A DNA stretch of 64,000 nt, taken from the IMG/VR virus record IMGVR_UViG_3300021956_000014. One strand, given 5' to 3'. The stretch comes from a virus. The notes beneath the pieces were generated by a model. The model was not told the DNA's origin. It made no database searches and saw nothing but the letters and a program-made list of their open reading frames with translations. The translations under genes and the position numbers were made by a program. Of the stretch, positions 11,416 to 62,899 are shown in pieces (position 1 is the stretch's first letter; each line of letters opens with the position of its first letter).

Positions 11416-11438
11416 GTTTAAGGTATTGTTGTTCTATA

Positions 11439-11467
11439 AGTATACAGTAAAACCAGTATACCTGCAA
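11439..11467 (-). promoter_or_regulatory. sigma70-like promoter upstream of clpA
   Basis: Minus strand TTGCAG-17 nt-TATACT, about 25 nt upstream of the clpA ATG. Confidence 0.4.
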
Positions 11468-11479
11468 CCTTTAAAATAT

Positions 11480-12334
11480 TTATTGGTTAGATTGGATTTG
11501 ACGTATTAATTCTAACTGCTGTTCAGTTAAGTGTTTAGGTACACTGACTGCGATTTCAACTAACAAGTTACCGCGAACGTTATGATTCAAATGATATAGG
11601 CCTTCGCCACGCACACGCATCATGGTTCCGGGTTGTGTACCGGGTGGTACTTGCAATTCAAACATTCGACCATCTAGTCCTGTAATTTCTGTAACGCCAC
11701 CAGTGATTGCGTCAAGACAATTTATAGAGACTTTAGAGATTAAGTCAACTCCGTCTATTCTAAATCTATGGTCTGGAGTAACATTAAAAACAATATACAA
11801 ATCACCGCGAGGTAATGTGTTGAACATATTGTCCCCTAGACCTGGATACTTTATCTGTGCTCCTGCGTGTATTCCTCTTGGTACAGTTACTTCTACAGTT
11901 TCTCTATGTCCTGTTGTTGTTTGTACACTTAATGTTTTCTTTTGTTCTTGTAGTGTTTCTGCTAACGGCATTACAACTTCAACTCTAAGATCTTTGTTTT
12001 TTCTAGGATGACGCTGTCCAAAAGGACTGCCATGACCAAATGGGCCTCCAGGAAAACCAAAGCCTCTAAGAATGTCTTCCATACCCGGCGGCATTTGGTC
12101 GAAGTCGTTACCGTTTACAGTAAAACGGAACCCACCAGGATTGCGACGTTCGTTGTCATACTGTGCTCGTTTGTTTGGGTCTTCTAGTACAGCGTATGCG
12201 GCCTGTATTTCTTGAAACTTCTGTGTGTCACCACCTTTGTCCGGGTGATGTTTGCTCGCGAGACTACGATATGCTTTTTTAATTTCGTCGGCCGTTGCAT
12301 TTTCGGCAACACCTAGTGTAGCATAATGAGTCAT
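11480..12334 (-). CDS. DnaJ/CbpA-type J-domain co-chaperone
   Basis: 284 aa; N-terminal J domain (YATLGV...KKAYRSLASKHHPDKGGD, HPD motif), no Cys-rich zinc finger, C-terminal DnaJ_C-like domains: CbpA-like architecture. Confidence 0.8.
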   Translation of the reverse strand: MTHYATLGVAENATADEIKKAYRSLASKHHPDKGGDTQKFQEIQAAYAVLEDPNKRAQYDNERRNPGGFRFTVNGNDFDQMPPGMEDILRGFGFPGGPFGHGSPFGQRHPRKNKDLRVEVVMPLAETLQEQKKTLSVQTTTGHRETVEVTVPRGIHAGAQIKYPGLGDNMFNTLPRGDLYIVFNVTPDHRFRIDGVDLISKVSINCLDAITGGVTEITGLDGRMFELQVPPGTQPGTMMRVRGEGLYHLNHNVRGNLLVEIAVSVPKHLTEQQLELIRQIQSNQ

Positions 12335-12342
12335 ATTCTCTT

Positions 12343-12383
12343 ATTATAAATGAGAAACCGGATAGTGTCAAGCTATCCGGTTT
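12343..12383 (-). promoter_or_regulatory. perfect-consensus sigma70-like promoter overlapping a terminator-like hairpin
   Basis: Minus strand TTGACA-17-TATAAT ending 8 nt before the dnaJ-like ATG; -35 and spacer lie inside hairpin AAACCGGATAG(N7)CTATCCGGTTT that follows the upstream gene. Confidence 0.5.
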
Positions 12384-20278: not shown

Positions 20279-21001
20279 ATGAATACTAAAATTTTTGCAC
20301 TCTTAACAAAAAATTTGTCTGAGGCATTTAATTTACCCAAGTACGCCAACATAGTCATAGACGAAACAACTGTAGTGGATAAACTACCCTGGACTCCTGC
20401 TCGCTATCGCAAATTTAAAGATGCGGTTGAAGCAGAATTAAGTCTACCCTGCGACTACATTGGTACTCTTAAAGATATAACACATGATTTAAGTGAGCGT
20501 TATACACATCGTTTCTTTGCAGAAATCTGGAAGCCTAGAACCAACGACTACGATTATACAGGCTGGCAATTGGTTGAAGAAGTTAATCAATTGAATCCAA
20601 AATCTGTATTAGATGTAGGCTGTGGCTACCATCCTTTTAAGGGACGTATCAACAATCTAGTAGGAATCGATCCCTACAACAACTGTGCAGACTATATGGT
20701 TGACATTTTAGAATATGTTGGCAAGCACGACGTTATCATTGCCTTGGGCAGTATTAACTTTAACAGCCGCGATGAAATTGAAGCTCGTTTTGCTCGTTGT
20801 GTTAGTATACTAGAGGAAGGTGGGACATTTTTTCTAAGAGCCAATCCAGGTATTCCTCACAAAACTGGACCATACGTTGATATATTTCCATGGACATTTG
20901 AAGTAGTTAAAGAGTTTGGTGACAAGTACAACCTTAAATTGGAAACTTTTAAGAAAGATGCCAACGATAGGTTGTACTTTGTATACTCTAAATTAGTTTA
21001 A
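20279..21001 (+). CDS. class I SAM-dependent methyltransferase
   Basis: 240 aa; motif I VLDVGCGYHPF and acidic post-I residue (GIDPY); plus strand between two minus-strand tctC-like genes. Confidence 0.55.
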   Translation: MNTKIFALLTKNLSEAFNLPKYANIVIDETTVVDKLPWTPARYRKFKDAVEAELSLPCDYIGTLKDITHDLSERYTHRFFAEIWKPRTNDYDYTGWQLVEEVNQLNPKSVLDVGCGYHPFKGRINNLVGIDPYNNCADYMVDILEYVGKHDVIIALGSINFNSRDEIEARFARCVSILEEGGTFFLRANPGIPHKTGPYVDIFPWTFEVVKEFGDKYNLKLETFKKDANDRLYFVYSKLV

Positions 21002-21003
21002 GA

Positions 21004-21924
21004 TTACTTAACTTCTATGCCTTTGGTATAATATTCAAATCGTTTAGAAGTATCTGCATACCACTTAGTAAGATCTCCTGGGTTCGACATATACGCTTCC
21101 TTGCTGGCAAAATCGGTGCGATACAAAGTTTGCACAGCTTCAGCTTTCTCGGCCTTTAAGAAAATTTGTTGCAATTCATCAACCGTTGCTTGTGGTGTAT
21201 CTTTAGGAACATAAAAAGCAAAAATACCTTGCAGTTCTATCAAGTCACTGTAACCTTGCGAAGCCAGTGTAGGAATACCTAAGAATGAGGTTTTACCAGT
21301 TAAACCAATCAATGTTGTGTCCGGCATTGCTTTAGCCTTGGCATCACCTAAGAATTCAAATGTTGCATCTGTATGCCCACCCATCACACTTAAGAAGGCT
21401 TCATTAGTGCTGGCAAAGTGAACCATTTGGACATCCTTAGTAGGATATTTTTTCTTGATATCTCTGGCTAGAGCCTCTAACATTAAATGAATGGTTGATC
21501 CTGTGCCTGCGGTGGCAAAATTAATTCGATCTTGCTTGATCAATTGGTCTAATGTTTTACCTTTGGTGATCAATGCGGCTGGGCTAATAGCCATAACCAT
21601 TACAGGTTTAAACTCCGACAACTTAAAAGTTGACTCTGGATACAAGTAAGGTCGAATAAACTGTGCCGTGCTGTTAGCATATACAACAGGACCATTTTTA
21701 TATGCTAGTGCATAACGTGCGGCAATAGATCCCCCGGCACCTGGACGGTTTTCAAAGATGAATTCATATTTGGATTGATTCTTATTTGCTTCTTCAAGGA
21801 TAGCTCGTATGTAAGTTCCTTGAGTGCTAGTAGGAATCCACCCCCAAATTGCTGGTGTTTTGATTGTTTGAGCTTGCGCTACAAAACTCGCGGCGGCAAA
21901 TAAAAGCGCCAATAGCTTTTTCAT
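21004..21924 (-). CDS. TctC/Bug-family periplasmic solute-binding protein, second copy
   Basis: 306 aa; signal peptide MKKLLALLFAAASFVAQA; ENRPGAGGSIAA, ATAGTGSTIHLMLEALA, SVMGGHTDATFE (Bug-domain pattern); RBS AAGGAAAA. Confidence 0.7.
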   Translation of the reverse strand: MKKLLALLFAAASFVAQAQTIKTPAIWGWIPTSTQGTYIRAILEEANKNQSKYEFIFENRPGAGGSIAARYALAYKNGPVVYANSTAQFIRPYLYPESTFKLSEFKPVMVMAISPAALITKGKTLDQLIKQDRINFATAGTGSTIHLMLEALARDIKKKYPTKDVQMVHFASTNEAFLSVMGGHTDATFEFLGDAKAKAMPDTTLIGLTGKTSFLGIPTLASQGYSDLIELQGIFAFYVPKDTPQATVDELQQIFLKAEKAEAVQTLYRTDFASKEAYMSNPGDLTKWYADTSKRFEYYTKGIEVK

Positions 21925-22106
21925 GTGATTTTCCTTAAATTTAATAAAGTTTGTTTTCGAACTGGAATGTATGCCCCTTTGGCATCAGTGCTGGCCTAAC
22001 TGAACAGCTAGGCAGACTAATATTTAGTCAAGTTGTAAAAAGAAAAACACATAGTTAATTCAGAATGTGACCTCTCGTTAAATACCTTTGTAAACAACAT
22101 TAAATT

Positions 22107-22919
22107 TTGGTTTACACAAAAATGCAAAGTTCAAACATTTTCAGCGTTAACAATAAGGAGAAACATTTGTCCAAACGGCGCAACAACCGAGCATTGGCTC
22201 AACAATTTCAAGACCCAACGCCAACTGTAATAAACAAACCACTTCAACTAGATCATTACAGAAAGCAACCGCGCAAAGTTCACTTAGTACCTAGAACTCG
22301 TTCTCAAGAAAGTTATTTAGAGTTACTAGACAATCCCGATAAATTAATAGTTTTTGCCACTGGCCCAGCTGGTACAGGTAAAACAATGATGGCTGTATTG
22401 GCCGCATTGCGAGCTTACCAAACAGGCGAGTGCAGTAAAATTGTCATCACACGTCCTGCCGTCGGCGTTGATGATGAAGAGCATGGATTCCTTCCTGGGG
22501 ATCTTAATGCAAAAATGGCACCATGGACTAGACCTATAATGGACTACATTGCAGAATATTATAGACCTCAGGACATTAATGCTATGCTAGAAGACCAGTT
22601 GATCGAGATTTCTCCACTAGCATACATGCGTGGACGGACATTTAAAAATGCGTGGATCATTGCAGACGAGATGCAAAACGCTACGCCAAACCAAATGAAA
22701 ATGCTGTTAACACGACTTGGTGAAGGAAGCAAACTGATTGTTACAGGCGATACTCAACAAACCGACCGCCGTGAGAGCGAAAACGGATTACTAGATTTTA
22801 AGAGGCTAGTAAAAGAGTACGAAGCCTGTCGATATGTTGCAGGTATAGAGTTTGGGGGTCGAGATATCCAGCGCCATCCTGCTGTACTAGAAATTTTAAA
22901 GATTTACAAGGAGATCTAA
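22107..22919 (+). CDS. phoH: PhoH-like ATPase
   Basis: GPAGTGKTMMAV Walker A, ...AYMRGRTF..., IIADEMQN (Walker B-like), GDTQQTD: classic PhoH; likely start TTG at 22164 preceded by AAGGAG 6 nt upstream. Confidence 0.85.
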   Translation: MVYTKMQSSNIFSVNNKEKHLSKRRNNRALAQQFQDPTPTVINKPLQLDHYRKQPRKVHLVPRTRSQESYLELLDNPDKLIVFATGPAGTGKTMMAVLAALRAYQTGECSKIVITRPAVGVDDEEHGFLPGDLNAKMAPWTRPIMDYIAEYYRPQDINAMLEDQLIEISPLAYMRGRTFKNAWIIADEMQNATPNQMKMLLTRLGEGSKLIVTGDTQQTDRRESENGLLDFKRLVKEYEACRYVAGIEFGGRDIQRHPAVLEILKIYKEI

Positions 22920-22931
22920 TATAAGTATTGG

Positions 22932-23897
22932 ATGTACAAATATTCTGACATCCGCTATGTTCATTTAGAGATATCAACCAGGTGTAACGCCGCTTGCCCT
23001 GGTTGTCCTAGAAATTTATGCGGCGTTGATGTAATCGATGATTTTCCGCTTCACGACATGACGTTGGCCGAAGCAGAACGAATATTTACTCCCAAATTCC
23101 TTCAGCAAATTAATAGGATGCACATTAATGGCAACCTCGGAGACTTTATCACAGCCCGAGATGGCCTGGCCATTGTGCGTTACTTTAGACAACACAATAA
23201 AGATCTAATAATTGACATCAGCACCAATGCTGGCGTTCGATCTGATATTTGGCCCGAGTTGGCACACTTAGGAGCCATTGTGCGTTTTTGCCTAGACGGA
23301 TTAGCGGACACACACGAACTGTATCGGCAACAAACACGCTGGTCTACTGTTATAGATAATGCCAGTCAATTTATTGCGGCAGGTGGTCATGCTATTTGGA
23401 AGATGATTAAGTTTGACCATAACCAGCATCAAGAAGCCGAGTGCAGGCAACTAAGCAAAGAGCTAGGATTCCGCGGATTTGAATTTGTTGACCATGGGCG
23501 AAATGCTTTCCCGGCATTTGATCAAAAGGGAAGATTTCGACACCACATAGGCTCTCACGATCAACCTATTGCGTTTGAACAGGTGCTATGGATACACTAT
23601 GATGGAATGGACGGACAACGAAGTTTGCCTGTAAAACCAAAAACAATTAGTTGCAAATCCGTCAACGATCGATCTGTTTATATATCAGCAACCGGAGAAG
23701 TATACCCTTGCTGTTGGCTTGGCTTTTATCCCCGCACCATGTATCATTTGGGCAATGACCGCATAGCCGAGATGTTACCTGCTAATAACAATGCATTAGA
23801 TGTTGGTATAGAGCAAGCAATTGGCTGGTTTGATCAAGTCAAAGACAGTTGGTCCGGGGACCAACTGATACAATGCAACACTGAATGTGGTAGTTAA
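22932..23897 (+). CDS. radical SAM protein with Cys-rich C-terminal (SPASM/twitch-like) region
   Basis: 321 aa; CNAACPGC (CxxxCxxC) near N-terminus; additional Cys cluster (YPCCWLG ... QCNTECGS) at C-terminus. Confidence 0.6.
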   Translation: MYKYSDIRYVHLEISTRCNAACPGCPRNLCGVDVIDDFPLHDMTLAEAERIFTPKFLQQINRMHINGNLGDFITARDGLAIVRYFRQHNKDLIIDISTNAGVRSDIWPELAHLGAIVRFCLDGLADTHELYRQQTRWSTVIDNASQFIAAGGHAIWKMIKFDHNQHQEAECRQLSKELGFRGFEFVDHGRNAFPAFDQKGRFRHHIGSHDQPIAFEQVLWIHYDGMDGQRSLPVKPKTISCKSVNDRSVYISATGEVYPCCWLGFYPRTMYHLGNDRIAEMLPANNNALDVGIEQAIGWFDQVKDSWSGDQLIQCNTECGS

Positions 23898-26221: not shown

Positions 26222-26578
26222 TTACCATGAACTATTATAAAACACTCGCAAGCCAGTAAACAATTCTGCTCGAGCTCTGCGAATAAATTCGAGATCTTGA
26301 TCTCGGTAGTAATCATCTGCACCGTCACCAAAGAAAAATCCCTGTGTGGCGGGCAATCGATTTTGTTCAATATCACGTTCGAGAATGTCGAGGTCTTCCC
26401 ATACCAGCTCTAGTTCAACACCGTTGAATGTTCTGTATGAGAGACCTTTCGCCTCCGCCAACTTCTCCATCCAACCATGCAGGTTAGGATGTTTGCGCCA
26501 ATAAGCGATTTCGCGTTGTTCTGTTTCCCAGTCTGCACCTGCTTTGGTGGCAGTATATGCATACATATCGAGTCCCAT
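26222..26578 (-). CDS. hypothetical protein
   Basis: 118 aa ORF. Confidence 0.4.
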   Translation of the reverse strand: MGLDMYAYTATKAGADWETEQREIAYWRKHPNLHGWMEKLAEAKGLSYRTFNGVELELVWEDLDILERDIEQNRLPATQGFFFGDGADDYYRDQDLEFIRRARAELFTGLRVFYNSSW

Positions 26579-27349: not shown

Positions 27350-27487
27350 TTAGTAATGCAACGGGTTACGACGACGAAGGTGTGCCAGGGCGGCCTCTTT
27401 AGTGTCAAAGCGACCCGAAATCGGGGTTTGGTGTGCGCCACGCACAATGAACCAACCTGACAATAAACTATTGTAAATGACTTTCAT
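27350..27487 (-). CDS. small protein (45 aa) directly downstream of promoter cassette P1
   Basis: MKVIYNSLLSGWFIVRGAHQTPISGRFDTKEAALAHLRRRNPLHY; RBS GGAGCC 7 nt upstream of ATG. Confidence 0.4.
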   Translation of the reverse strand: MKVIYNSLLSGWFIVRGAHQTPISGRFDTKEAALAHLRRRNPLHY

Positions 27488-27517
27488 TGCGGGCTCCTTT
27501 TAACTTACTATGCCACT

Positions 27518-27546
27518 ATTATACAAAAGATTCCATTTAGTGTCAA
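27518..27546 (-). promoter_or_regulatory. promoter cassette P1: perfect sigma70 consensus
   Basis: Minus strand TTGACA-17-TATAAT then AGTGGC ... AAAGGAGCC RBS ... ATG; same cassette repeated at 27889-27917 and 62786-62814. Confidence 0.55.
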
Positions 27547-27583
27547 ATGAGAAAAGTAGTACTTTTGTAGTACTACTTTAGTA

Positions 27584-27862
27584 TTACTCGCGCTGGGCGA
27601 GCTTGTTGTACACGGGACGTGGTATAGACACTTTGACAGTGAGTGCATTGGCACGGACACGCAGAGTTTCTACGACAGCGTCTACTTGCGTTAAAGTGGC
27701 GTCCTCGGGGTTTAAATCTACTAGAAACAAGGCTTTGTTTGCAGTAAATTCTGCGAAGGTGTGTGCTACAATACGCAGGGCTGTTATGGTGTTTGAGTAG
27801 GGCTTGCGTTTAAAATTTACTTTTAAATACAAAGTACTACTGGGTGCGGAATTAAACAACAT
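27584..27862 (-). CDS. hypothetical protein downstream of promoter cassette P2
   Basis: 92 aa; RBS AAAGGAGCC. Confidence 0.45.
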   Translation of the reverse strand: MLFNSAPSSTLYLKVNFKRKPYSNTITALRIVAHTFAEFTANKALFLVDLNPEDATLTQVDAVVETLRVRANALTVKVSIPRPVYNKLAQRE

Positions 27863-27888
27863 AGTGGCTCCTTTATTGTTAAGCCACT

Positions 27889-27917
27889 ATTGTACTAAAG
27901 ATTCCTTTTTGGGTCAA
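27889..27917 (-). promoter_or_regulatory. promoter cassette P2
   Basis: Minus strand TTGACC-17-TACAAT then AGTGGC ... AAAGGAGCC ... ATG; spacer conserved with P1 (GGAATCTTT). Confidence 0.5.
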
Positions 27918-28153
27918 CGGCGTCTGGCGACGCTATCGTGCAGGGCCTGCAGGTATTGAGTTTGATTGCGTAGTTTGGCTTCTAGAGCTTCAACCCGGGC
28001 TGTCATCATCTGAACTTGTTGCTCCATGGCTTCGATGGTTTGTTGTGCTGTACGAAGTTTGACTTCGTGTGTCATTAAGTTTGGGCGTGGTGGAGCATTT
28101 GGGTCCACCGGACGCTTCTTCTTAATTTTATACATGTCTTGAATGTAGCTCAT
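27914..28153 (-). CDS. small coiled-coil protein
   Basis: 79 aa, heptad-like EALEAKLRNQTQYLQAL. Confidence 0.4.
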   Translation of the reverse strand: MSYIQDMYKIKKKRPVDPNAPPRPNLMTHEVKLRTAQQTIEAMEQQVQMMTARVEALEAKLRNQTQYLQALHDSVARRR

Positions 28154-28474: not shown

Positions 28475-29659
28475 TTACCTCCAATACTGCTTGAATTCTG
28501 GAACCACTTCCAGTACGCTTTCGTTTCTAAGTTGATCTAATTTATCGGTAAACCGACAGGTTTCGTGCCACGAACCAATTGGTGCCTCTGACATGTAACT
28601 GATAATACCATCCGCTCTTGTTTGTTGTTCTTTGTAACGACTGCAAGACAGTAATCGTTGACCAGCTAGATCTTTTAATTCCTGTGGTAAGTTTTTAATG
28701 TTTAACTGTGCTGGAAAATGGCAAACAGTCAAGTCAATGGGATCGAATGTGTTTCCATTGGCGTAGGCAAAATCCAGCATCTTGTCAAGGTACAGTACAT
28801 TGTAAACGCTGACCACACAATTGAACTTGATCTTTACTCCGGGAAATTGTCGGACTGTTTCGATGTTGCGTAATAGCAAGCTCCAGTCTAAACCCGAGCG
28901 TATGTATTCTCCCAGTTGTTCCGTAGCATCTACACTGACAATGAACAACACATTGGAAAAATGCTGTAAGTAATCTTCTAGTCGGTGCTGACCAAACTGT
29001 AGCTTGGTCAGGTTGGTTGTGTAGGTTAGGCGTATGTCTGTTAGTCCCAACTCTATTAGGCGATCCAATAACTCCCAGTGTTCTTGCTGGAATAAACTTT
29101 CGCCGCCGGCAAAGTAAACTTCTTTTAGTTGACTGAGATCTCCATAGCGCAACATATCAACTTGTTCGTTGAGTGCATGGATAACATAGTTGGTCCGTGG
29201 CTCGCGGTTATAGACTGCTACAGAGTCTGTACCCCAACTATGGCTATAGTCTGGACCGCACATACGACATTTTAAGTTACAGATGTTTGAAAAACGAATG
29301 TCCCAATACTGTAGTGCAAAGTCTTGTAAATAACCGTCGGCTGAAGTTTTGGCCAACAGTCCGTCGACATCAATATTTAAATGATCTATGTCTTGATTTT
29401 TAGCAGTACGGAAACTAGGAAGTCCGTGGGACTCTTCTTTATAACAACCTGCACAGGCCCGCGGCTGGTTACCGGCTAACATTTCTGTACGCACACGGCG
29501 CATGGCCTCTGTGTTTGCTACAGAGCCAGCATCGGTAAAGTCTTGTATGTTACCAAAGTTGCCTTGAGCCGCACAGCAAGGTTTTATTTTGCCCGTTGGA
29601 TCATGGAAGAAATGTATCCAAGGTAAAATACAAAACGTCTTACTGGGCAGGTTGCTCAT
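28475..29659 (-). CDS. radical SAM protein with extra N- and C-terminal Cys clusters
   Basis: 394 aa; CNLKCRMCGP (CxxxCxxC); additional N-terminal Cys cluster (residues 10, 28, 29, 68, 71) and C-terminal Cys residues; 1-nt gap to the cupin gene. Confidence 0.6.
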   Translation of the reverse strand: MSNLPSKTFCILPWIHFFHDPTGKIKPCCAAQGNFGNIQDFTDAGSVANTEAMRRVRTEMLAGNQPRACAGCYKEESHGLPSFRTAKNQDIDHLNIDVDGLLAKTSADGYLQDFALQYWDIRFSNICNLKCRMCGPDYSHSWGTDSVAVYNREPRTNYVIHALNEQVDMLRYGDLSQLKEVYFAGGESLFQQEHWELLDRLIELGLTDIRLTYTTNLTKLQFGQHRLEDYLQHFSNVLFIVSVDATEQLGEYIRSGLDWSLLLRNIETVRQFPGVKIKFNCVVSVYNVLYLDKMLDFAYANGNTFDPIDLTVCHFPAQLNIKNLPQELKDLAGQRLLSCSRYKEQQTRADGIISYMSEAPIGSWHETCRFTDKLDQLRNESVLEVVPEFKQYWR

Positions 29660-34279: not shown

Positions 34280-34283
34280 AAAA

Positions 34284-34327
34284 GAAAACTCCTAGTAGCA
34301 CATAGTATATACTATAGCACACTAGGA
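34284..34327 (-). terminator. long hairpin between the fibre module and mazG, enclosing the mazG RBS
   Basis: GACTCCTAGT ... ACTAGGAGTT stem with inner palindrome ATAGTATATACTAT; 3' arm contains AGGAG 9 nt before the mazG ATG, followed by TTTCTTTT. Confidence 0.45.
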
Positions 34328-34347
34328 GTCAAACTCAGTATAACCAA

Positions 34348-35080: not shown

Positions 35081-38000
35081 TTAGTTGAATACGTTAAGTC
35101 GCGGAAACTTCAAATACTTCTCGCCTGTAATCATTAAAGGATCAATTCTTTCCCATTTTCCAGTCTGGAACACCAGAGATCCTGGCACATTTGTAGTGGC
35201 TCTGTAATATTGATTCTGATATTTTACCTTACTGCTTACTGGGTAATAGGTATTAACAGCCCAGCTGGCTATAACGTCAGTATCGATGTCAAGCGGTCTG
35301 TCTCTGTTGTCAAAGAACTTAGTTCCGTTGCCGTCAAAGCTAGTGCGGCCACCATCGGCTCCGTTATAAGTAATGACGTTTGGTACTTTATTAAAGTCTG
35401 GAACTGTGTGCCCAGTTTCTATACTATGGCTGTACTGAACAAAACTTTGACCGTGGCTTCTGCCATCCAGTACTTTCACTACAGATCCTTGGCTTAGTTC
35501 TTTTACAAATTGCAATCTAATAGTTGAAGTGTCTTCATTAATTTGTACTTCCCATATCCCGGCTCGCTGATTCTCAATGTAATAACCCATTAAATCCCCA
35601 ACACGAATGCTGGTGGTAAAATCTGGGTCATAGTTTTCTAGTGTAATTACATTGTCAACAATGTTAGCAATTCTAGTGCCAGTGGCAATGCCATATCCTG
35701 AAACAGCATTTTCGATTAGTGCTAGTTTGTCTCCTATAGCTGGCGGGAACGATGCAGAATCAACAGTTATAGTATTGCCATCAACTGCGGTAACAATTAA
35801 ATATGATTCAACTTTGATTGTGGCCCCCACAGCCGCAGTTCCAACAGTTGTTTTGTTTAACGTCAATTTCCAGCTTAATGTACCTGTGCTGTTGTCGGCA
35901 ACTTGATTTGTAATTACAGTATTGTCATCAACAAAGCTACTGGCTTTGATCATTTTGCCAACATAGTTTACACTAACAATATAAGGAACGTATAGGTATT
36001 GGTCACCAACTGTCACGGCTCCTGTTAAACCAGGCTCTTGTGTCTTGGCGGCTTTTTCTGTATAACCCGGTATGATATAAGAACTGTCAAAGCCAGCAGA
36101 GTCATAGTATGCTGTGTCAACTGAATCGGTTGCGTCTGAATAGTTACCTACAAATAGATCTCTGTAATAAATCCAACCATCGTTTGGAAAATTAGTAGTA
36201 AAGTTTTCTTGTTTGGCAAATATTATTCGGTCGCCGGTTCTGAAAGAAGTAACGCCATCAATGCCACCGCGATCGTTTACATAGGTAACAAGTTGGTTGT
36301 TAATGCTGGCAAATGTTTGCTCAGCCGCGTAGTTCACAACATCAAAGGATGTTGAATCTACTAGACTTAAATAGTCAAATGTTGTTTGTCTACTAGAGGC
36401 AAACTCGTCGGCAGTGATATTAAAGTTTTCGCTGAGTACGTTATCTAATAAGTAACGGTCGGCAGTGAAGTTAAAGGAATCTAAAGATATTCCTTTGTTT
36501 TGTATACGCCAAGCAATCTTCTTAGCCTGACCGGGTTTGGTATAGGCCAGTACCACAGCACGTTTAAATCCCAATACTGTTTTATCTTCCTGTACGCTAG
36601 TCATCCAATCAGGAATAACACCCTGTGCGCTGTAACCTAAATTTTGACTGATACGAGTTTCCATATTGTCAAATGTATTTGGGTTTAAGATATAATGTTC
36701 TTGCCCGGTGGTGTCATAGTATGGATTCTTTATGGTGTTTATACCTGAGTACAAGTTGGTCTCAATGGCCACGTCGGCATTGTCTGGGTTAAACGGATCT
36801 ACTATATCAGCATAAACTACTTCATACTTAACAGCATAGTTGTTGTTGGGGTCTGTAGCAATGGCTGTTTTAATTTCCGAAAACTTGATTGTTTTATTTT
36901 GGAAATTCTTTTGCATGGCGGCCATATAGTCAGATAGACTGCTTGGAGCTACGCCGGGCACCGCTAAGAATTTTATCTCTTTAGCTTTGCCAAAGTTTGG
37001 GTCATCAAGTCTGTAAATCAAATCGTCTGGGAACAAGCCACCATCGGTTGGATCTTTGAGTATATCGTTAAACAATCTACGTTGCTCTATAGTAGTCAAT
37101 GCCTTCATGTATAAGTTTTCATAAGGCACTTCATACAAATTGCTGACTTTGATAGTAAAGGTTTTTTCGTCAGATACTGTTTGATCTATAGATTCTGCTT
37201 GTACAGTAAATGTGTAGATAGTGTCGAAGTTTGTTCTACTACCATCAATGGTAGTTGCACCAGTATCCAATTGGAAATGTCTAAATGACGCACGACCCAC
37301 AATGTGACCAGACGGCAACAATTCTAGTCCTTGCGGTAAACTAACTTCTATCGGGGTGTTGTATCCTTCGTCAGTTAGTGCTGATCCGTCCTCTGCTGTA
37401 CCATGTACAATTTTGTAGATCATCTTCTTACCGGGCGTGGTCTCGTCGTCTACATATAGGGTGCTGTGGGCATTAATAGTTAATTCGCTAACTGAACCAT
37501 TGACAATAGTTCCAACTAAACTGTCAGTGTCCCAGACAATCTTGTTATTAACGTCACCAAGCACAGTCAACTGGTATTGCACTGGAGTACTGGTTAAAGT
37601 GCCATCAAATGTTATATTTCCTGCAGGAGTACTTGATGCGGTATCGGAAATTTCTAATGTGTTATTGGCACTAAAAACACGCAAGACCTGCTGACTATTT
37701 GTAAACACATTAGACTGTACATACATGCCAGCTCTAATTCCAGCTGTGCTGTTGACAATTAAATTTGTGTTGCTGTAACCTCCAGCAACATACGTGGCTG
37801 TAACAATGCTGGTGCCCGGAGTATTATTTGCGGCTGTTATATAAAATGTGTAGGTTTGTTTGTAGTCGCTTTGATTACCGATGTGCCCAGACAGCCACCC
37901 TGTGTTTGAGTTGAGTGTTAAACCAGGAATTAAGTTAGCAATATTTGTATTTCCGCTGATGTCGGGACTAGACCAATACAGCGGGCTAGTATTATAATAA

Positions 38001-38947
38001 TCAACGGCGCTGAATTTAAAAGCAAAATTACTGTTTTCGCGAACGTCGGGCAAACTAGTAATAGCCGTAGTTATAATAGGAACATACAGTTGATCGGCGT
38101 CGGTTGTAATAACGTCGTCATCAACAGTATTAAGATCGTTATCCGTAGTCCACGAACCTTTAGAAACAACTTTAATTGTGTATATTTGTGTGTCATATTT
38201 GGCACCATCAAATACCTGTACTGTAAAAGTATAATTCTTGTTAGTAGATAGGGATACGCTGTAATCGTATGGTAGTTCTTCATACAACTGTGTACTACCA
38301 AACGGTGTTTGTGTTTCTAATCTATACGGTTGTGCGTTACCAGTAAAGTACTGGTTGTCGGGCACAGTAACATTGGCTGTTGGCGAAAACAGTATTTGAA
38401 TCTGTGATGGTTTACCTTCGTATCCAAGTCTGTCGCTGGTTGTAACAGATTCTGCTTGACCAACAAATCCTACTAGTCGGCCATCGGTGGTCAATTCAAT
38501 TCCTGGTGGAAGTTCTCCGTCTTTGATGGTCCATGTTAACACAGCAGATGGGTTGGCTTCAATGGCATCCAATGCTATATCAATCTGTGTGCCATCAAAG
38601 AACTCACCCAGTAGTGTTTCTTCTGGGACAATAACCGGTGGTTGTATGTTGCTGACTGTAAAACTAAATGTACGGTCTACTACCACCACAGGTGTTTGGC
38701 AACTGGCTCGTATTGTAAATTTGTATGTACGTGTCTCAGCGTCAGGCTTTGGATCTAATACAACCGGCACGCCTTGTAGTATACCCGATCGCACTACTTG
38801 TAGACCGGGTGGCAATTCGCCTGACAAGAAAGTAAAAGTAACAGGTGTACTGGTTGGGTTATTGACTTCCAATGGTAGTGAATAAAATTCCAACTCAGGA
38901 AATGTCCCTAGGTTACCTCCGGGAGTGATCCATACTGGTCTTGACAT
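35081..38947 (-). CDS. large structural protein with repeated Ig-like domains (fibre/baseplate/adhesin)
   Basis: 1288 aa; recurring LPPGL/LPPGIEL ...G.I.G.P Ig-like (He_PIG-type) repeats at N-terminus; Thr/Asn/Val-rich. Confidence 0.55.
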   Translation of the reverse strand: MSRPVWITPGGNLGTFPELEFYSLPLEVNNPTSTPVTFTFLSGELPPGLQVVRSGILQGVPVVLDPKPDAETRTYKFTIRASCQTPVVVVDRTFSFTVSNIQPPVIVPEETLLGEFFDGTQIDIALDAIEANPSAVLTWTIKDGELPPGIELTTDGRLVGFVGQAESVTTSDRLGYEGKPSQIQILFSPTANVTVPDNQYFTGNAQPYRLETQTPFGSTQLYEELPYDYSVSLSTNKNYTFTVQVFDGAKYDTQIYTIKVVSKGSWTTDNDLNTVDDDVITTDADQLYVPIITTAITSLPDVRENSNFAFKFSAVDYYNTSPLYWSSPDISGNTNIANLIPGLTLNSNTGWLSGHIGNQSDYKQTYTFYITAANNTPGTSIVTATYVAGGYSNTNLIVNSTAGIRAGMYVQSNVFTNSQQVLRVFSANNTLEISDTASSTPAGNITFDGTLTSTPVQYQLTVLGDVNNKIVWDTDSLVGTIVNGSVSELTINAHSTLYVDDETTPGKKMIYKIVHGTAEDGSALTDEGYNTPIEVSLPQGLELLPSGHIVGRASFRHFQLDTGATTIDGSRTNFDTIYTFTVQAESIDQTVSDEKTFTIKVSNLYEVPYENLYMKALTTIEQRRLFNDILKDPTDGGLFPDDLIYRLDDPNFGKAKEIKFLAVPGVAPSSLSDYMAAMQKNFQNKTIKFSEIKTAIATDPNNNYAVKYEVVYADIVDPFNPDNADVAIETNLYSGINTIKNPYYDTTGQEHYILNPNTFDNMETRISQNLGYSAQGVIPDWMTSVQEDKTVLGFKRAVVLAYTKPGQAKKIAWRIQNKGISLDSFNFTADRYLLDNVLSENFNITADEFASSRQTTFDYLSLVDSTSFDVVNYAAEQTFASINNQLVTYVNDRGGIDGVTSFRTGDRIIFAKQENFTTNFPNDGWIYYRDLFVGNYSDATDSVDTAYYDSAGFDSSYIIPGYTEKAAKTQEPGLTGAVTVGDQYLYVPYIVSVNYVGKMIKASSFVDDNTVITNQVADNSTGTLSWKLTLNKTTVGTAAVGATIKVESYLIVTAVDGNTITVDSASFPPAIGDKLALIENAVSGYGIATGTRIANIVDNVITLENYDPDFTTSIRVGDLMGYYIENQRAGIWEVQINEDTSTIRLQFVKELSQGSVVKVLDGRSHGQSFVQYSHSIETGHTVPDFNKVPNVITYNGADGGRTSFDGNGTKFFDNRDRPLDIDTDVIASWAVNTYYPVSSKVKYQNQYYRATTNVPGSLVFQTGKWERIDPLMITGEKYLKFPRLNVFN

Positions 38948-38950: not shown

Positions 38951-40489
38951 TTATACTCTGCCTACAACAATTTCTATTACGCCAACTTCACTGCTATTAT
39001 AGTTTTGCAAGGCTTTACCTATAACAGTACCGATGTGTGGGCCAAAAGGTGGCATACAAGAGGTTGCTACACCCGCGATATCACTGGTGATCATCATGTC
39101 TCCTCGGCGTATCAATCCAACCACCTTACATGGCACACGACCTTGTAGTGCAATGGCTACGCCTTCGGCTTCACTGTTCATTAAGTAAGCAGGATTAGTA
39201 GTTACAACCCCGGCTACACGGTTGTCTTCTCGTCTGGAACTGATGGTAACTTCTGTGTCTGTGCCGAATATTAAAACTGTGCCAGGCTCGTAGTTGGCAT
39301 CTGATTCATAAACCTCAGCCAAGTCGGCGTATTTGGCTGTGGTACTGGTACCATAGAAATTAACACCGTAAATATTGGCAAAATATGCAGTAGTAGATCC
39401 AATGTTTACTGCGGCATTAGAGTTTGGCAATATAGCACTGGCCTGTACAGTCCCACCATAAGTTGGTAAGTAAGCCGCCACGTTGGAGTTTCCGTATGTG
39501 GTAGGTATAGATAATGTTGTTGCATAATTGGTACCGTTGGCCCAGAAAAGTCCACTGGTGGTAACTAAATTACCAGAGCTGGTTACGTTGCTGGCCAATA
39601 GTGTTGTAAACACACCCGAGCCTGGAGTGACATTACCGATTGCTGTAGATTGAATTCCGCCTGCTGTAAGTGTAGTGAAGGTTGCCGCACCGGTGTGTGT
39701 GCTAGTACCAGTTACACTAAATGTTCCGCTGGCTGATATGTTGGTAAACGCACCTGTACCCGGAGTAACATTACCGATTGCTGTAGCTTGTAAACTAGCA
39801 CCTGTGATGGTATTTAAAGTACTGGCTCCAGCAACGGCTAAACTAGGTAGTGTTCCTAGTGTTAAGTTTGTTGCTGTTAAATTTGTAAATTGTGCTGTAT
39901 TAGCAGTGATAGTTCCAGAAACTGCAACATTGCCTGCGGCCGCATTGCCGATTAAGTTTGTAGCCCCAGCAACAGTTAGCGATGCAACAGTTGTAGCACC
40001 CGATGCACTTAAAGTTCCAACACTAGCATTGCCTGATGAAAATACACCACCAACTGATAAGTTGCCGGCAATGCTGTTGACAGTACCACCGACGTTGATA
40101 TTACCACGGATACCTACACCGCCATATGCCTGTAGCATACCAGTTGTTGTGCTGGTGCTGACGTCGGTGTTAGAGAAAATACCATACAAGCTAACATTAC
40201 CGCCGTTCCAACTACCCGAACTTGATGTTAAAACTTCAGAACCGCGAGAGAAAACAATACCGCCATAGACGTTTAATCCGTAAACTGCCCCGGAATTCGC
40301 GCTGATGTCACCAGATGCACTTATGTTGGTAACCGGATAAGCCTCGGCCTGTGCGGCTGTGCCATTTAGCTGATTGTTAAGTTTGTTGGTGTTTGAGTTA
40401 ACAATGGTAAAAGCATCTCTGATGGTTGAACCATCACCAGAGTTGGCTGTACTACCGGTGTTTACACTATCTAAATGAACAGTTGTCAT
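38951..40489 (-). CDS. tail fibre protein
   Basis: 512 aa; N-terminal NTGSTANSGDGSTIRDAFTIVNSN motif shared with the 42138..45527 fibre; Ala/Thr/Gly beta-helix-like repeats; distinct C-terminal globular domain. Confidence 0.6.
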   Translation of the reverse strand: MTTVHLDSVNTGSTANSGDGSTIRDAFTIVNSNTNKLNNQLNGTAAQAEAYPVTNISASGDISANSGAVYGLNVYGGIVFSRGSEVLTSSSGSWNGGNVSLYGIFSNTDVSTSTTTGMLQAYGGVGIRGNINVGGTVNSIAGNLSVGGVFSSGNASVGTLSASGATTVASLTVAGATNLIGNAAAGNVAVSGTITANTAQFTNLTATNLTLGTLPSLAVAGASTLNTITGASLQATAIGNVTPGTGAFTNISASGTFSVTGTSTHTGAATFTTLTAGGIQSTAIGNVTPGSGVFTTLLASNVTSSGNLVTTSGLFWANGTNYATTLSIPTTYGNSNVAAYLPTYGGTVQASAILPNSNAAVNIGSTTAYFANIYGVNFYGTSTTAKYADLAEVYESDANYEPGTVLIFGTDTEVTISSRREDNRVAGVVTTNPAYLMNSEAEGVAIALQGRVPCKVVGLIRRGDMMITSDIAGVATSCMPPFGPHIGTVIGKALQNYNSSEVGVIEIVVGRV

Positions 40490-40577
40490 AGAGCGAAAAT
40501 TCCATTATTATATGTTATTTATCGCTCTGGGAAAGTATGCTGTGTTTGGGTTATGTGCGTATATTATTGATAGACAA

Positions 40578-41318
40578 TTATATCAATCGCTCAATACAGA
40601 TAAAGTTCTTTGTATAACCGGGTCCAATCATCAGTGTGACTCTGTAGAAACGCTGATTTGTAGTATCATTAACTAGATATGTTGAACCGTCGCCTGCGTT
40701 AGGGAAACTCCAACCAAACCACGATCCACTTGGGGTTGTTGTGTAAGTAACAGGTGCGGTAGTTGCCGAGCCACCAACACCGTTGACATATCCAAATGTT
40801 CCAGAGATACTAAGAGCCGCTGTGCCGCTAACTGTAGCACAGCTCAAGCCTCTTTGCCCTCCTGTTGTTACAGTAAACTTGAGATTATCTAGTGTTACAA
40901 ACTGTCCAGCATCTACGTACCCTGAGGCTTTCCATACCAATTCGCCAGCAACACCAGTGGGCGCCTTACTTAAATCAATGTGAACACCTCGAGCAGATCC
41001 GCCTTGTTCAAAGATACGCAGACGATTTTGATAGGCATCAATGGTAATGCCACCATTTAAAGTACCGTTAGGTGGTTTTGCTAATTGTATTTCACCACCT
41101 TCATCGCCCGAAGCATTGGTTGAAACCAAGTAAGGTCCGGAAGCATTACCGTCTTTTCCTGCTGGACCTGGCTCTCCAGGATCACCTTTGATGCCAATGC
41201 CCTTTTCGCCTTGTGGACCGGGAATGCCTCGTACATTGCCTGCGTCGATTACTGTACCCTCGTCTGTTACAAATATAAGGTGTCCATTGTCGTTTAATGT
41301 TGCGTTGATAATAGCCAT
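40578..41318 (-). CDS. collagen-like repeat fibre protein
   Basis: 246 aa; GIPGPQGEKGIGIKGDPGEPGPAGKDG = nine G-X-Y triplets. Confidence 0.6.
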   Translation of the reverse strand: MAIINATLNDNGHLIFVTDEGTVIDAGNVRGIPGPQGEKGIGIKGDPGEPGPAGKDGNASGPYLVSTNASGDEGGEIQLAKPPNGTLNGGITIDAYQNRLRIFEQGGSARGVHIDLSKAPTGVAGELVWKASGYVDAGQFVTLDNLKFTVTTGGQRGLSCATVSGTAALSISGTFGYVNGVGGSATTAPVTYTTTPSGSWFGWSFPNAGDGSTYLVNDTTNQRFYRVTLMIGPGYTKNFICIERLI

Positions 41319-41319
41319 G

Positions 41320-42168
41320 TTATGTTAATCCTAATCTCCATTTTGTATTCAAATACTGCTCAACAGCCGTTTGCTCCGACGGAGTTAATGCTCGAGTCCA
41401 GATCATAATTTCGCCAATGTAACCATCCATGTACTGCCCAGTAAATGTTGGATTAACTGCCGAACCTCTATTGTCGCCACCAAAGAACCAATAGCTTGGT
41501 GTGCCGGTGGTTGTACCAACTGTGCCAGTAAACGTCAATGCTTTTTCGTACAAGTCGTAGATAAATGTCAATTTACCTGCGTTGGTGCTTTGTGTGCCAT
41601 CGTATACTAGACCGTATATATGGAACTTGCTAGTATCGTCTGTGAGTGATACGGTACCGTAATTGCTAACCGAATGTCCAACGGTCCAATTTGATCCATT
41701 CCACCAAATGCCAAAGTTAGTATCTGTAACCACCAAGGGAAACAAAGTACCGGGCAAGCTAGTAGGACGAGCAACAATATAAACTGTAAGTCCCGACAAG
41801 TTTTGTGACCACGATGTTGGGTTAATGTCGAGATTATTACCACTGGCGCTAGAGTACAATACTGCGCCAAGGCCTTGTTGTACAGGTATAGCATACGTGG
41901 GTTGCTTGCCAGTACCACCGTTGACGTTAGCAGGATGTCCTGCACCGGACAAGTCAGACCATGATGATATGGTAGTACCATTGGTTACTGCCCCGGAAAA
42001 GTTATTGATGCTAACACCGTTGACCACTGTGGCACTTGCAGAAGCATTGTACCACAGATTTAAGCTAGGAACACTCGATGGCCGCACATCGCCGTATTGG
42101 CCAGCGGCACCCATACATGGCATGATAATACCTGACATTATGCTAGTCCCACACCCGACACAAACCAA
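41320..42168 (-). CDS. structural protein (fibre-associated)
   Basis: 282 aa, Thr/Gly/Asn-rich, 31-nt overlap with the upstream fibre gene. Confidence 0.4.
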   Translation of the reverse strand: MVCVGCGTSIMSGIIMPCMGAAGQYGDVRPSSVPSLNLWYNASASATVVNGVSINNFSGAVTNGTTISSWSDLSGAGHPANVNGGTGKQPTYAIPVQQGLGAVLYSSASGNNLDINPTSWSQNLSGLTVYIVARPTSLPGTLFPLVVTDTNFGIWWNGSNWTVGHSVSNYGTVSLTDDTSKFHIYGLVYDGTQSTNAGKLTFIYDLYEKALTFTGTVGTTTGTPSYWFFGGDNRGSAVNPTFTGQYMDGYIGEIMIWTRALTPSEQTAVEQYLNTKWRLGLT

Positions 42169-47750: not shown

Positions 47751-47959
47751 GTGTATTCGATGTCACGCATGTGGGCAACAGGATTGAGCCAACCATTGTT
47801 GATACATTCTGCAATGATCAGTCGATACTCGCGTGGGCACTGATTGTTGATTTCAAATGCCGCTCGGGGCACCAGTCTCAAACCGTCGGGTGAGAATGTA
47901 AAATCAGCATCACTGGGACGCAAAGTTTTGTGGGGTTGACCGGCAGAAATCTTAATCAT
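47729..47959 (-). CDS. hypothetical small protein
   Basis: 76 aa ORF. Confidence 0.35.
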   Translation of the reverse strand: MIKISAGQPHKTLRPSDADFTFSPDGLRLVPRAAFEINNQCPREYRLIIAECINNGWLNPVAHMRDIEYTWEKLQS

Positions 47960-47975
47960 GCTTTATTATAGCAAA

Positions 47976-51529: not shown

Positions 51530-51760
51530 CTAACTCCATTTTAATGCAAAAAGTGTTTTGGCTTCATCGTTGCAAAATTTTATAATCATTCCAGTTCTTT
51601 TACAACCATGTACATCCAACCAATCATCGATGATCTCTGCGTAGTCCGCGTAGTAGTTGTAGTCTTCAATTATAGCACCATCATCAAAAAAGATAAATCT
51701 GTTTTTCATGCCCAACGTAATGCAAATAAGGTTGCATCTTCTTCGTACCGAAAATACCAA
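51530..51760 (-). CDS. small paralog-family protein (member 4)
   Basis: C-terminus NDEAKTLFALKWS. Confidence 0.45.
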   Translation of the reverse strand: MVFSVRRRCNLICITLGMKNRFIFFDDGAIIEDYNYYADYAEIIDDWLDVHGCKRTGMIIKFCNDEAKTLFALKWS

Positions 51761-52094: not shown

Positions 52095-52095
52095 A

Positions 52096-53405: not shown

Positions 53406-53411
53406 AGTAAC

Positions 53412-62347: not shown

Positions 62348-62534
62348 CCTTTTGCATGGAGCCCACCGGCAGAACCAAACTTACATCACCGCGGTCGTTA
62401 ACTTCTGCTACCACAGCCAGCGTACCAAATTTGGTCCAAACTGCGTCTAGGGGTTTGAGTTTTTTGGTTTTCATATTACATACTCCAATAAGTTTCAGAG
62501 TCGGGGCGGCAACACCAGGGAGTGTCTGCATCAA
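62265..62534 (-). CDS. hypothetical small protein
   Basis: 89 aa maximal ORF; probable start at MKTKKLKPL. Confidence 0.35.
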   Translation of the reverse strand: MMQTLPGVAAPTLKLIGVCNMKTKKLKPLDAVWTKFGTLAVVAEVNDRGDVSLVLPVGSMQKVAWYSPKELEYIGPVSKMVDSFTHSIV

Positions 62535-62754
62535 TTTCTACGTCCTTACCCGACATCAAATTCTTAACGGTGATTTTGGGAGCCCGGTAAGTGTCGCGAG
62601 CAACAATGGTCAATTCGCTGACGCTCCAACCTGCTTTGTTGCAGAGACGGGTACGAGTGGCCTTAGCGGCACCAAAAGTTTTGTAGGCACGGGTTTTGTT
62701 GGGACCATCGGTAACAATAAGTCCGGTACCTTTTGCAACGATTACATATGACAT
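62476..62754 (-). CDS. hypothetical protein downstream of promoter cassette P3
   Basis: Start ATG 62754 (MSYVIVAKG...) preceded by AAAGGAGCC RBS. Confidence 0.4.
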   Translation of the reverse strand: MSYVIVAKGTGLIVTDGPNKTRAYKTFGAAKATRTRLCNKAGWSVSELTIVARDTYRAPKITVKNLMSGKDVEIDADTPWCCRPDSETYWSM

Positions 62755-62785
62755 TTGGGGCTCCTTTACTAGCTTCAATACATGT

Positions 62786-62814
62786 ATTGTAATATAGATG
62801 CCATTTCTCGTCAA
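62786..62814 (-). promoter_or_regulatory. promoter cassette P3
   Basis: Minus strand TTGACG-17-TACAAT ... AAAGGAGCCCC ... ATG; spacer shares AAATGGCATCT with P1/P2. Confidence 0.5.
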
Positions 62815-62849
62815 ATTTTGGGCAAAATAGTTGTTGCAAAAAAGCCACA

Positions 62850-62890
62850 AAAAAGCCCCAAAAATGGGGCTATTTTTTGTAATACTAGAG
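62850..62890. terminator. intrinsic terminator after the OMP gene
   Basis: AGCCCCAtttttGGGGCT hairpin with T-runs on both sides. Confidence 0.55.
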
Positions 62891-62899
62891 TATTACTTT

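Follow-up and report, generated by a model that had tools for sequence, protein, structure and literature searches.

Repeated cassettes, probably sigma70-type promoters fused to Shine-Dalgarno leaders, before small ORFan genes in a putative uncultured relative of jumbo phage PA5oct

In T4-type phages (RB49/phi1, PST/T4 and nt-1/KVP40), a repeated genetic element termed PeSL (promoter-early stem-loop) has been described, in which a sigma70-like early promoter is combined with a stem-loop, a Shine-Dalgarno (SD) sequence and an ATG, several copies being present per genome (Arbiol et al., 2010, PMC2839356; Comeau et al., 2014, PMC4122927). PeSLs adjoin ORFans in hyperplastic regions, lie at the boundaries of indels and replacements and have their own consensus in each phage group, and their promoter, terminator and mini-circle activities have been shown experimentally (PMC2839356; PMC4122927). 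They are the closest described system to three cassettes, called here P1, P2 and P3, which are found on the minus strand of a 64-kb stretch of viral DNA (IMG/VR record IMGVR_UViG_3300021956_000014; the window, i.e., the whole stretch that was analyzed; cassette positions are read on the minus strand). We consider it likely that P1, P2 and P3 are PeSL-like, sigma70-type promoter/SD cassettes, read by the host RNA polymerase (RNAP) and starting transcription units made of ORFan genes. They are, in other words, the ordinary kind of phage promoter cassette, encountered in another, abundant and uncultured lineage.

The likeness to PeSLs concerns both architecture and genomic setting. A stem-loop adjoins the promoter in P1 and P3, P2 failing in this respect, and an SD and an ATG stand at the 3' end of all three elements. 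The copies are multiple and lie beside ORFans, three of them sharing a spacer box (see below) among ~11 cassette-like promoters in 64 kb, and the cassettes are located at insertion, deletion or replacement boundaries between relatives. As in PeSLs, the stem-loop may overlap the promoter, which is the case at window positions 12371 and 34332. The differences are that the lineage is PA5oct-like and not T4-type, which touches formal membership and not mechanism, that the stem-loop consensus is new (GTAnTAC...GTAnTAC between an A-run and a T-run), that the longest exact runs between the window copies span just 9-10 nucleotides (nt), and that the activities of PeSLs were demonstrated by experiment whereas the window cassettes are known from sequence alone.

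The nearest cultured relative, the Pseudomonas jumbo phage PA5oct, is host-RNAP reliant and has 32 intergenic TTGAC/TATAATA promoters located at transcript starts determined by RNA-seq (Lood et al., 2020, PMC7318152). These promoters resemble the P1-P3 hexamers, whereas a 41-kb PA5oct sample has sigma70-like sites devoid of the spacer box, of the ACTTGTAT/AGTGGCATAG start region and of the AAAAAGGAG SD block. A further parallel is provided by the strong early promoters of phages T5 and T7, which unmodified host RNAP uses as soon as infection begins and which, reportedly from the work of the Bujard laboratory, are alike beyond their hexamers in an upstream A/T block, in the spacer and in the initially transcribed region. 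P1-P3 are similar to them in having consensus-like hexamers at 17 nt and extra conserved blocks in the spacer and from +1 to +20; they differ in the sequence of these blocks, and the T5/T7 promoters are said to have been described without any link to SD/ATG or gene shuffling.

An initial annotation of this DNA had proposed three minus-strand copies of one element, with a -35 TTGAC[ACG], a 17-nt spacer with a common core and a -10 TATAAT or TACAAT, and all of these features are found on the reading strand in P1, P2 and P3 (Table 1), as is the AGTGGC announced after the -10 of both P1 and P2. P1 matches the sigma70 consensus at 12 of 12 positions (TTGACA and TATAAT, the claimed 6/6 at both hexamers), P2 and P3 at 10 of 12, and all spacers are 17 nt long. 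The spacer core AAAnGGnATCTnT, hereafter the box, is common to the three cassettes, its degenerate form being AAA(A/T)GG(A/C)ATCT(T/A)T. All three promoters are on the coding strand, followed at 20-33 nt by an SD and ATG. The SD block is present in the three copies as claimed, but the ATG follows the 9-mer by 3-4 nt (5-6 nt after GGAG) and not by 4-6 nt. Similarly, describing the copies as near-identical was excessive, pairwise identity over ~62 nt being 77% for P1/P2 and 71% for P1/P3 and P2/P3. A distance of 371 bp separates the -35 hexamers of P1 and P2, in line with the ~370 bp proposed, and the small open reading frames (ORFs) of 45 and 92 amino acids (aa) noted behind these two promoters are indeed there, neither having a Pfam or PHROG match; the ORF behind P3 has no Pfam match and only a marginal PHROG match. 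Paralogy of the two 92-aa ORFs was rejected, as neither retrieves the homologues of the other in the loci compared and they look unrelated by eye.

Such an arrangement is hardly expected by chance. The pattern TTGACN7GGNATCTN4TAYAAT occurs in the window as three exact copies and one with a single mismatch, against 0.00 expected from 100 shuffles, and AAAGGAGCC has three occurrences in 64 kb, each at one of the cassettes, for 0.56 expected.

Table 1. Positions of the cassettes, adjoining stem-loops and downstream genes in the 64-kb window.
Feature	Positions	Strand	Description
P1 core promoter	27518..27546	-	-35 TTGACA (27546-27541), 17-nt spacer with AAATGGAATCTTT, -10 TATAAT (27523-27518)
P1 leader	27485..27517	-	AGTGGC, SD AAAGGAGCC (27500-27492), cgca, ATG (27487-27485)
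P2 core promoter	27889..27917	-	-35 TTGACC (27917-27912), 17-nt spacer with AAAAGGAATCTTT, -10 TACAAT (27894-27889)
P2 leader AGTGGCTTAACAAT	27860..27888	-	AGTGGC, SD AAAGGAGCC (27874-27866), act, ATG (27862-27860)
P3 core promoter	62786..62814	-	-35 TTGACG (62814-62809), 17-nt spacer with AAATGGCATCTAT, -10 TACAAT (62791-62786)
P3 leader ACATGTATTGAAGCTAGT	62752..62785	-	SD AAAGGAGCC (62767-62759), ccaa, ATG (62754-62752)
AT-rich stem-loop AAAGTAGTACT-acaaa-AGTACTACTTT, then T-rich TTTCTCATTT	27553..27579	-	Directly upstream of P1; -12.1 kcal/mol, z = -3.1
AT-rich stem-loop GTAATACT-ct-AGTATTAC	62879..62896	-	Just past the stop of the outer-membrane-protein-like gene, upstream of P3
GC-rich intrinsic terminator AGCCCCA-tttt-TGGGGCT + T-run	62848..62871	-	Between the AT-rich stem-loop and P3
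Weaker fourth relative, TTGACA-17-TATAAT	12343..12383	-	Before the DnaJ-like gene; one mismatch to the pattern
45-aa ORFan (ORF45)	27350..27487	-	Predicted to be driven by P1
92-aa ORFan (ORF92)	27584..27862	-	Predicted to be driven by P2; between the P2 and P1 cassettes
92-aa ORFan MSYVIVAKG...	62476..62754	-	Predicted to be driven by P3

Conservation in relatives, which are IMG/VR loci numbered L001 and onwards, speaks for a function of the cassettes as promoters. L001 (IMG/VR contig 3300043409_000956) was reached through the gene downstream of P1 (79% aa identity), and the orthologous alignment took in the window, L001 and L006. In this alignment, the P1 core is invariant at 28 of 29 positions (97%) and the P1 leader at 28 of 30, compared with 60 of 93 third codon positions (65%) in ORF92. 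In the P2 core, 23 of 29 positions are invariant and the changes are confined to free spacer positions and to positions 3 and 5 of the -10, with orthologous hexamers TACAAT, TATACT and TATAAT for the -10, in which T1, A2 and T6 are kept, and TTGAC(C/T) for the -35. Because the P1 core and leader exceed third-codon invariance and the P2 changes follow sigma70 rules, the non-coding DNA of the cassettes is under purifying selection, with the pattern expected for a sigma70 promoter.

The position of comparable sites relative to genes points in the same direction. A scan of both strands for strong sites (TTGAC-N16-18-TAnnnT) returned 19 minus-strand and 4 plus-strand sites, and 11 of the 19 fall just upstream of gene starts (12371, 27546, 27917, 34332, 47993, 49594, 53440, 55875, 60126, 62293 and 62814), 7 of the 11 being within 47.9-62.8 kb, amid small ORFs. 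On the plus strand of the window, no gene-start site with a 17/18-nt spacer and a TA[CT]A[ACT]T -10 was found. The strong sites at gene starts are all on the minus (coding) strand. In the upstream gaps of the large structural genes at 38951-45527, no TTGAC/TAnnnT pair is present. Considering the consensus hexamers, the ORFan genes downstream and the lack of such promoters before the large structural genes, we infer an early timing for P1, P2 and P3. SDs of the AAGGAG type are found at 7 of ~110 genes in a rough gene map of the window, and 4 of the 7 are behind strong promoters; this scarcity and this promoter linkage would fit first genes of operons, which are unable to use translational coupling.

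How far the format extends can be appreciated from two samples of loci collected blind to promoters, the first fetched through homologues (67-87% aa identity) of the outer-membrane-protein-like (OMP-like) gene located before P3 and the second, of 80 loci (L169-L247 among them), through the family of a 118-aa gene. The OMP-anchored loci keep the AT-rich hairpin and/or the GC-rich terminator and then a promoter, followed by downstream genes that are all different, and the box is found in none of them. Upstream of the 118-aa gene, the DNA is hypervariable, a homologue of the 222-aa gene of the window being present in about 9 of 79 loci, and these loci contain promoter arrays, with one promoter per 150-700 nt; none has the full box, the best score being 8/10. 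The 199 unique sites of the promoter-blind samples yield the clade consensus ttt-n-GG-TTGAC-caaaAAT-nnn-caTT-n-TGn-TATAAT-A-nana-CATA..A-rich-AGGAG, of which CAATAATTCCCAATTTGC exemplifies a typical spacer, and the P1 and P3 leaders fit this consensus well. Likewise, a scan anchored on the ACWTGTAT leader type, to which P3 belongs (TTGAC-N18-TAYAAT-ACWTGTAT), gave matches in at least 120 viral IMG/VR stretches, with several spacer families and, among all these matches, no full box. Spacers are more similar within a contig (8.9/18) than between contigs (6.55/18), a difference that 0 of 2000 permutations reach. Since the promoter-blind and leader-anchored samples show the format without the box, the former appears to be clade-wide and the latter a variant confined to a narrow sub-lineage, within which it was probably spread by duplication or recombination. 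With consensus hexamers and spacing, location on the coding strand at gene starts, purifying selection and a clade-wide format, the interpretation of these elements as a repeated promoter/ribosome-binding-site module is thus well founded.

The box itself deserves a separate examination. A tighter pattern fitting all the copies, TTGACNNNAAANGGNATCTNTNNTAYANT, was found in 12 IMG/VR stretches from 10 viral contigs (up to 320 kb), before many different genes. When all TTGAC-N18-TAnAnT sites of the window and of the box-pattern loci were listed with an unconstrained spacer and scored on the ten box positions, the 19 pattern-selected copies scored 10/10, 6 unselected ones 8-9/10 and the 33 other sites at most 7/10, so that the box marks a distinct promoter class beside others. 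Outside the promoter context, the spacer core has 7 loose matches for 5.2 expected by chance, and the idea of an independent binding site beyond promoters was rejected on this ground; a spacer hairpin AAAAG...CTTTT was also discarded, as it is not conserved in P1 or P3. A scan of bacterial genomes with the box pattern returned 29 matches, all ordinary sigmaA promoters in unrelated metagenome-assembled genomes, without the phage leader; one of them precedes a tRNA, and they provide neither a host clue nor homology. A BLAST search with a consensus cassette gave only weak matches (E ~0.4-4) in phages of Vibrio, Lactococcus and others, which cover the -10 and leader and in no case the whole cassette. 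With the spacing between -10 and SD held constant, a first scan of the collection had 0 matches, as leader length varies.

The split between promoters scoring 8-10/10 and those scoring 7/10 or less, together with the near invariance of the ten box positions while their neighbors vary freely, could also indicate that the box is an operator, through which a phage or host DNA-binding protein co-switches P1, P2 and P3 as a separate sub-regulon. The box is moreover kept at the P2-orthologous site of L010 though the flanking proteins are only 35-58% identical, and P3-type cassettes bear a palindrome over the -10 and +1. However, the invariance is partly circular, since most copies, that of L010 included, were retrieved by pattern, and the box is asymmetric, is never located outside a promoter spacer and has no candidate regulator identified. 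In addition, other spacers are in use in promoter-blind relatives, both before the 118-aa gene and at P3-orthologous sites, non-box cassettes precede homologues of the P3-driven ORF, and the box follows the A-tract, G/C cluster and T-tract layout of the clade, of which it may be one lineage's variant. An operator function of the box is hence improbable in our opinion. Regarding the palindrome, it is a perfect one of 14 nt (CAATACA/TGTATTG, 62776-62789, minus strand), which spans the -10 and +1 of P3 and could be either an operator or a mere consequence of the conserved start region. The related sequence TACAATACTTGTATTG is present in 3 copies in L009 and also in many other contigs.

Many jumbo phages encode their own transcription machinery, and the elements might accordingly depend on a phage-modified polymerase, a phage sigma factor or a phage RNAP and act in the middle or late phase. 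An additional specificity factor would be in keeping with the conserved spacer and leader, and L139, a locus of a distant relative on a 340-kb contig, encodes near its OMP-like gene a 75-aa protein with a Pfam RNA_pol_Rpb6 match (2798-3025), possibly an RNAP accessory (omega-like) subunit of phage origin. Against this stand the 6/6 match of P1 at both hexamers with optimal 17-nt spacing, the retention of T1, A2 and T6 of the -10 in orthologues, and the distribution of these promoters, which small ORFans have and which the upstream gaps of the large structural genes (35-45 kb) lack. Among ~35 window proteins scanned, a subset of the window ORFs, no RNAP or sigma gene was found, and transcription in PA5oct is rifampicin-sensitive and host-RNAP dependent (PMC7318152). 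We judge a dedicated phage machinery very unlikely.

The stem-loops adjoining P1 and P3 were, with ~8 other sigma70-like promoters and the link to plasticity in gene content, missing from the initial annotation, whose interpretation is otherwise essentially right. The P1 stem-loop, whose core GTAGTACTACAAAAGTACTAC is identical in L001 and L006, appears as terminator-like in the terminator listing; it may act on the ORF92 transcript as a weak intrinsic terminator or as an attenuator. Upstream of P3, the 101-nt region that includes the GC-rich terminator has a folding energy of -30.6 kcal/mol (z = -3.5), and counterpart terminators follow the OMP-like gene in L135, L136, L137, L138 and L139. In the window, the motif GTAnTAC-N3-8-GTAnTAC is present upstream of P1 and P3 only (0.04 expected). 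In relatives, there are 17 cases with a TTGAC/TATAAT promoter within 75 nt, usually in the order aaaaa-stem-loop-tttttgg-TTGAC, and the stem-loop precedes promoters in L003, L008, L009, L058, L135, L136 and others. P2 has no room for such a structure because its -35 contains the TGA stop of the upstream 79-aa ORF, an arrangement also seen in L010. The P2 leader holds instead an inverted repeat, AGTGGCT/AGCCACT, able to form a hairpin of -12.0 kcal/mol (z = -4.5). A role of this hairpin in SD sequestration is doubtful, as transcription probably starts beyond its 5' arm, leaving this arm out of the RNA, and no compensatory changes are seen, the pairing being reduced to 5 bp in L006. For P1 and P3, an SD-sequestering leader hairpin was rejected, the fold being no better than that of shuffles.

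Comparison of gene content shows that the cassettes coincide with insertion, deletion or reshuffle boundaries. Colinear homology with L001, L006 and L012 (78-82% nt identity) stops at 27483, a few bases beyond the P1 ATG; in these three loci, an extra gene of 253 nt follows this ATG, the alignment resuming at ORF45 with the junction sequence AATGAA, and a second extra gene stands before the 222-aa gene. ORF45 has homologues (84-93% aa identity) in L001, L006, L012, L084 and L097, and ORF92 (83-86%) in the first three. The P3-driven ORF has homologues in L084, L097 and L058, where they follow cassettes with other spacer types. In L084 and L097, the ORF45 homologue occurs in a different neighborhood, ~270 nt downstream of such a homologue, and L097 has the 105-aa and 92-aa ORFs in the opposite order to the window. 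The more distant L010 has a homologue of the 79-aa ORF, a single box cassette and then directly a homologue of the 222-aa gene, with ORF92, the stem-loop, P1 and ORF45 all absent, from which P2-ORF92-stem-loop-P1 in the window can be viewed as a cassette-ORFan-cassette unit. Around P3, only ~105 nt (62855-62751) match L008, L003 and L009 at the DNA level (76-85%), the flanking genes being unrelated, and every relative compared has different genes behind the OMP-like gene.

As the copies mark breakpoints in gene content and as the stem-loop is conserved in sequence and not in structure alone, one may ask if the primary nature of the repeats is that of a mobile or recombination element (a miniature inverted-repeat element of the MITE type, or a homing or site-specific site), with a secondary likeness to promoters; a site-specific mechanism has been raised as a possibility for PeSLs (PMC2839356). 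The copies nevertheless have neither terminal inverted repeats nor target-site duplications, each lies on the coding strand with a constant distance to an SD and ATG, the constraint on their sequence obeys sigma70 rules, and no recombinase or homing endonuclease was found beside them, leaving this explanation with a slimmer chance still than a dedicated phage machinery. Finally, functionless chance matches in AT-rich intergenic DNA, which a loose sigma70 scan might evoke (37 sites for 36 expected in 16 kb), are effectively refuted by the statistics of the specific pattern, by the strand placement of strong gene-start sites and by cores conserved above the synonymous-site level that recur in dozens of related contigs.

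With the cassettes taken as host-read sigma70-type promoters, RNAP carrying a sigma70-type factor would start transcription at P1, P2 and P3, about 7 nt past the -10. Each promoter would be fused to a leader of ~20-25 nt with a strong SD, and the resulting transcription units would begin with small ORFan genes. P1 and P3 would be composite, the upstream stem-loop and T-run ending or attenuating the preceding transcript and thereby insulating the cassette; P3 would be preceded additionally by the GC-rich terminator, and P2 would be packed against the upstream gene. The similarity beyond the hexamers would have two sources, namely the format of the clade (GG-TTGAC, a spacer changing from A-rich to T-rich, TGn-TATAAT-A, a start region that is conserved and an A-rich AGGAG) and common descent, or recombinational spread of cassettes within the lineage, giving rise to the GGnATCTnT variant. 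Because each small gene has its own cassette, gene gain, loss and reordering would take place at the cassettes, and this plasticity may be due to recombination there.

Several observations weigh against the promoter-cassette interpretation or narrow it. The GGnATCT box is missing from the promoter-blind samples, and its conservation in L010 is biased since this locus was retrieved through the box. P2 has no stem-loop and abuts the upstream stop codon. The association between promoters and indels is partly trivial, being expected wherever each small gene has its own promoter, and the exact runs between P1 and P2 are just 9 nt, which is short for homologous recombination and makes current recombination doubtful. 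Moreover, the extra gene after P1 in relatives has no second cassette behind it, a simple indel at AATGAA being equally possible. As to the host, the sole pointer, drawn from the OMP-like gene and the relationship to PA5oct, suggests a Gram-negative bacterium.

The cassettes reveal no new mechanism. They supply for very abundant uncultured large phages a promoter model (GG-TTGAC, structured spacer, TGn-TATAAT-A, start region and AGGAG) that is useful for delimiting transcription units, for telling probable early ORFans from structural genes and for locating gene exchange, and they indicate that a module made of a stem-loop, a promoter and an SD, tied to ORFan shuffling, is not confined to T4-type phages. 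There is also a small chance that dedicated phage factors recognize the box, the P3-type palindrome and the GTAnTAC stem-loop. If so, the box would bind a spacer-binding regulator defining an immediate-early sub-regulon, and the stem-loop a protein or nuclease promoting termination or cassette exchange; this would represent a regulatory or recombination layer undescribed for PA5oct-like jumbo phages and extend PeSL-type shuffling to an abundant clade.

Other promoters of the window display variations on the same theme. At 12371, an 11-bp terminator-like hairpin (12355-12383; -15.1 kcal/mol, z = -5.4) holds the -35 in its loop and the ATG comes 8 nt past the -10. At 34280-34347 on the minus strand, TTGACT-17-TATACT is enclosed by the hairpin arms CTCCTAGT and ACTAGGAG, the 3' arm holding the SD and being followed by TTTTCTTTT; this hairpin, at 34332, looks like a terminator with the next promoter in its loop, and its counterpart in L006 (~11155) has CCTGG/CCAGG arms with an apparent compensatory change, as read by eye. 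Four consensus promoters on the minus strand, at 55841-55875, 53405-53440, 47959-47993 and 12334-12371 (TATAATtgcatATG, TATAATgttactATG, TATAATaaagcATG and TATAATaagagaatATG), have an ATG 5-8 nt past the -10 and no SD, a design shared by 36 of the 199 promoter sites of the promoter-blind relatives; the corresponding mRNAs are probably leaderless. Besides, the minus-strand gaps 63446-63532, 54664-54754, 55025-55105 and 40490-40577 contain TATAATA-like or TATACT -10 elements without a TTGAC -35, for example ggctatataataac, gatagtataattac and acatataataatgg, which may form a second promoter class, perhaps middle or late.

Regarding the phage as a whole, nearly all window genes are on the minus strand and GC content is ~42%. 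No near-identity match to the region was found in cultured phages, and no Rfam family anywhere in the window. Recognizable genes encode a ClpA/B-like ATPase, a DnaJ homologue, a clamp loader, an ATP-dependent ligase, two radical-SAM proteins and large tail-fiber-like proteins. The clamp loader is 56% identical (aa) to that of the PA5oct group, and PA5oct and the window have a common gene order, with the ligase, the clamp loader, DnaJ, ClpA and then the structural genes; on the basis of this identity and shared order, the window can be assigned to an uncultured jumbo phage with a distant relationship to PA5oct/Arenbergviridae. At 9136-12334 (minus strand), the ClpA/B-like AAA+ ATPase (759 aa) adjoins the full-length DnaJ homologue (284 aa), which matches the Pfam families DnaJ (J domain) and DnaJ_C (C-terminal domain), and the same pair exists in PA5oct. 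The two radical-SAM-domain proteins are encoded at 28475-29659 (minus strand) and 22932-23897 (plus strand), the latter gene being within the sole plus-strand island of the window (20279-23897).

The OMP-like gene (62900-63445, minus strand) is a 181-aa ORF with a signal-peptide-like N-terminus and the C-terminal sequence ...GLGLGFAF, features resembling those of outer-membrane beta-barrel proteins. Neither Pfam nor PHROG gave a match for it, but it has more than 1000 metagenomic homologues, many on phage-like contigs up to 340 kb, and an identical protein is present on a 67,312-nt metagenomic contig. All the homologues being metagenomic proteins, they give no indication of the host. The 118-aa ORF (26222-26578; MGLDMYAY...FYNSSW) belongs to PHROG 7971, of unknown function, and its family is found in more than 534 IMG/VR stretches, for which reason the phage clade would be very abundant in metagenomes.

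Repeats of other kinds are also present in the window. The 1129-aa ORF at 42138-45527, which like the 1288-aa ORF at 35081-38947 has no PHROG match, contains at 44202-45185 internal repeats of 120, 86 and 60 nt (families D1, D2, D4 and D6), indicative of a repetitive, fiber-like protein. Five copies of a ~38-nt repeat (family D5), ~100-475 nt apart, are located at 51532-52643 and probably mark a family of small paralogous ORFs. Lastly, three near-identical GC-rich terminator-like hairpins, AAAAAAAGGCCCnnnnGGGCCTTTT (family D11), are found at 6848-6873, 54714-54739 and 56716-56741.

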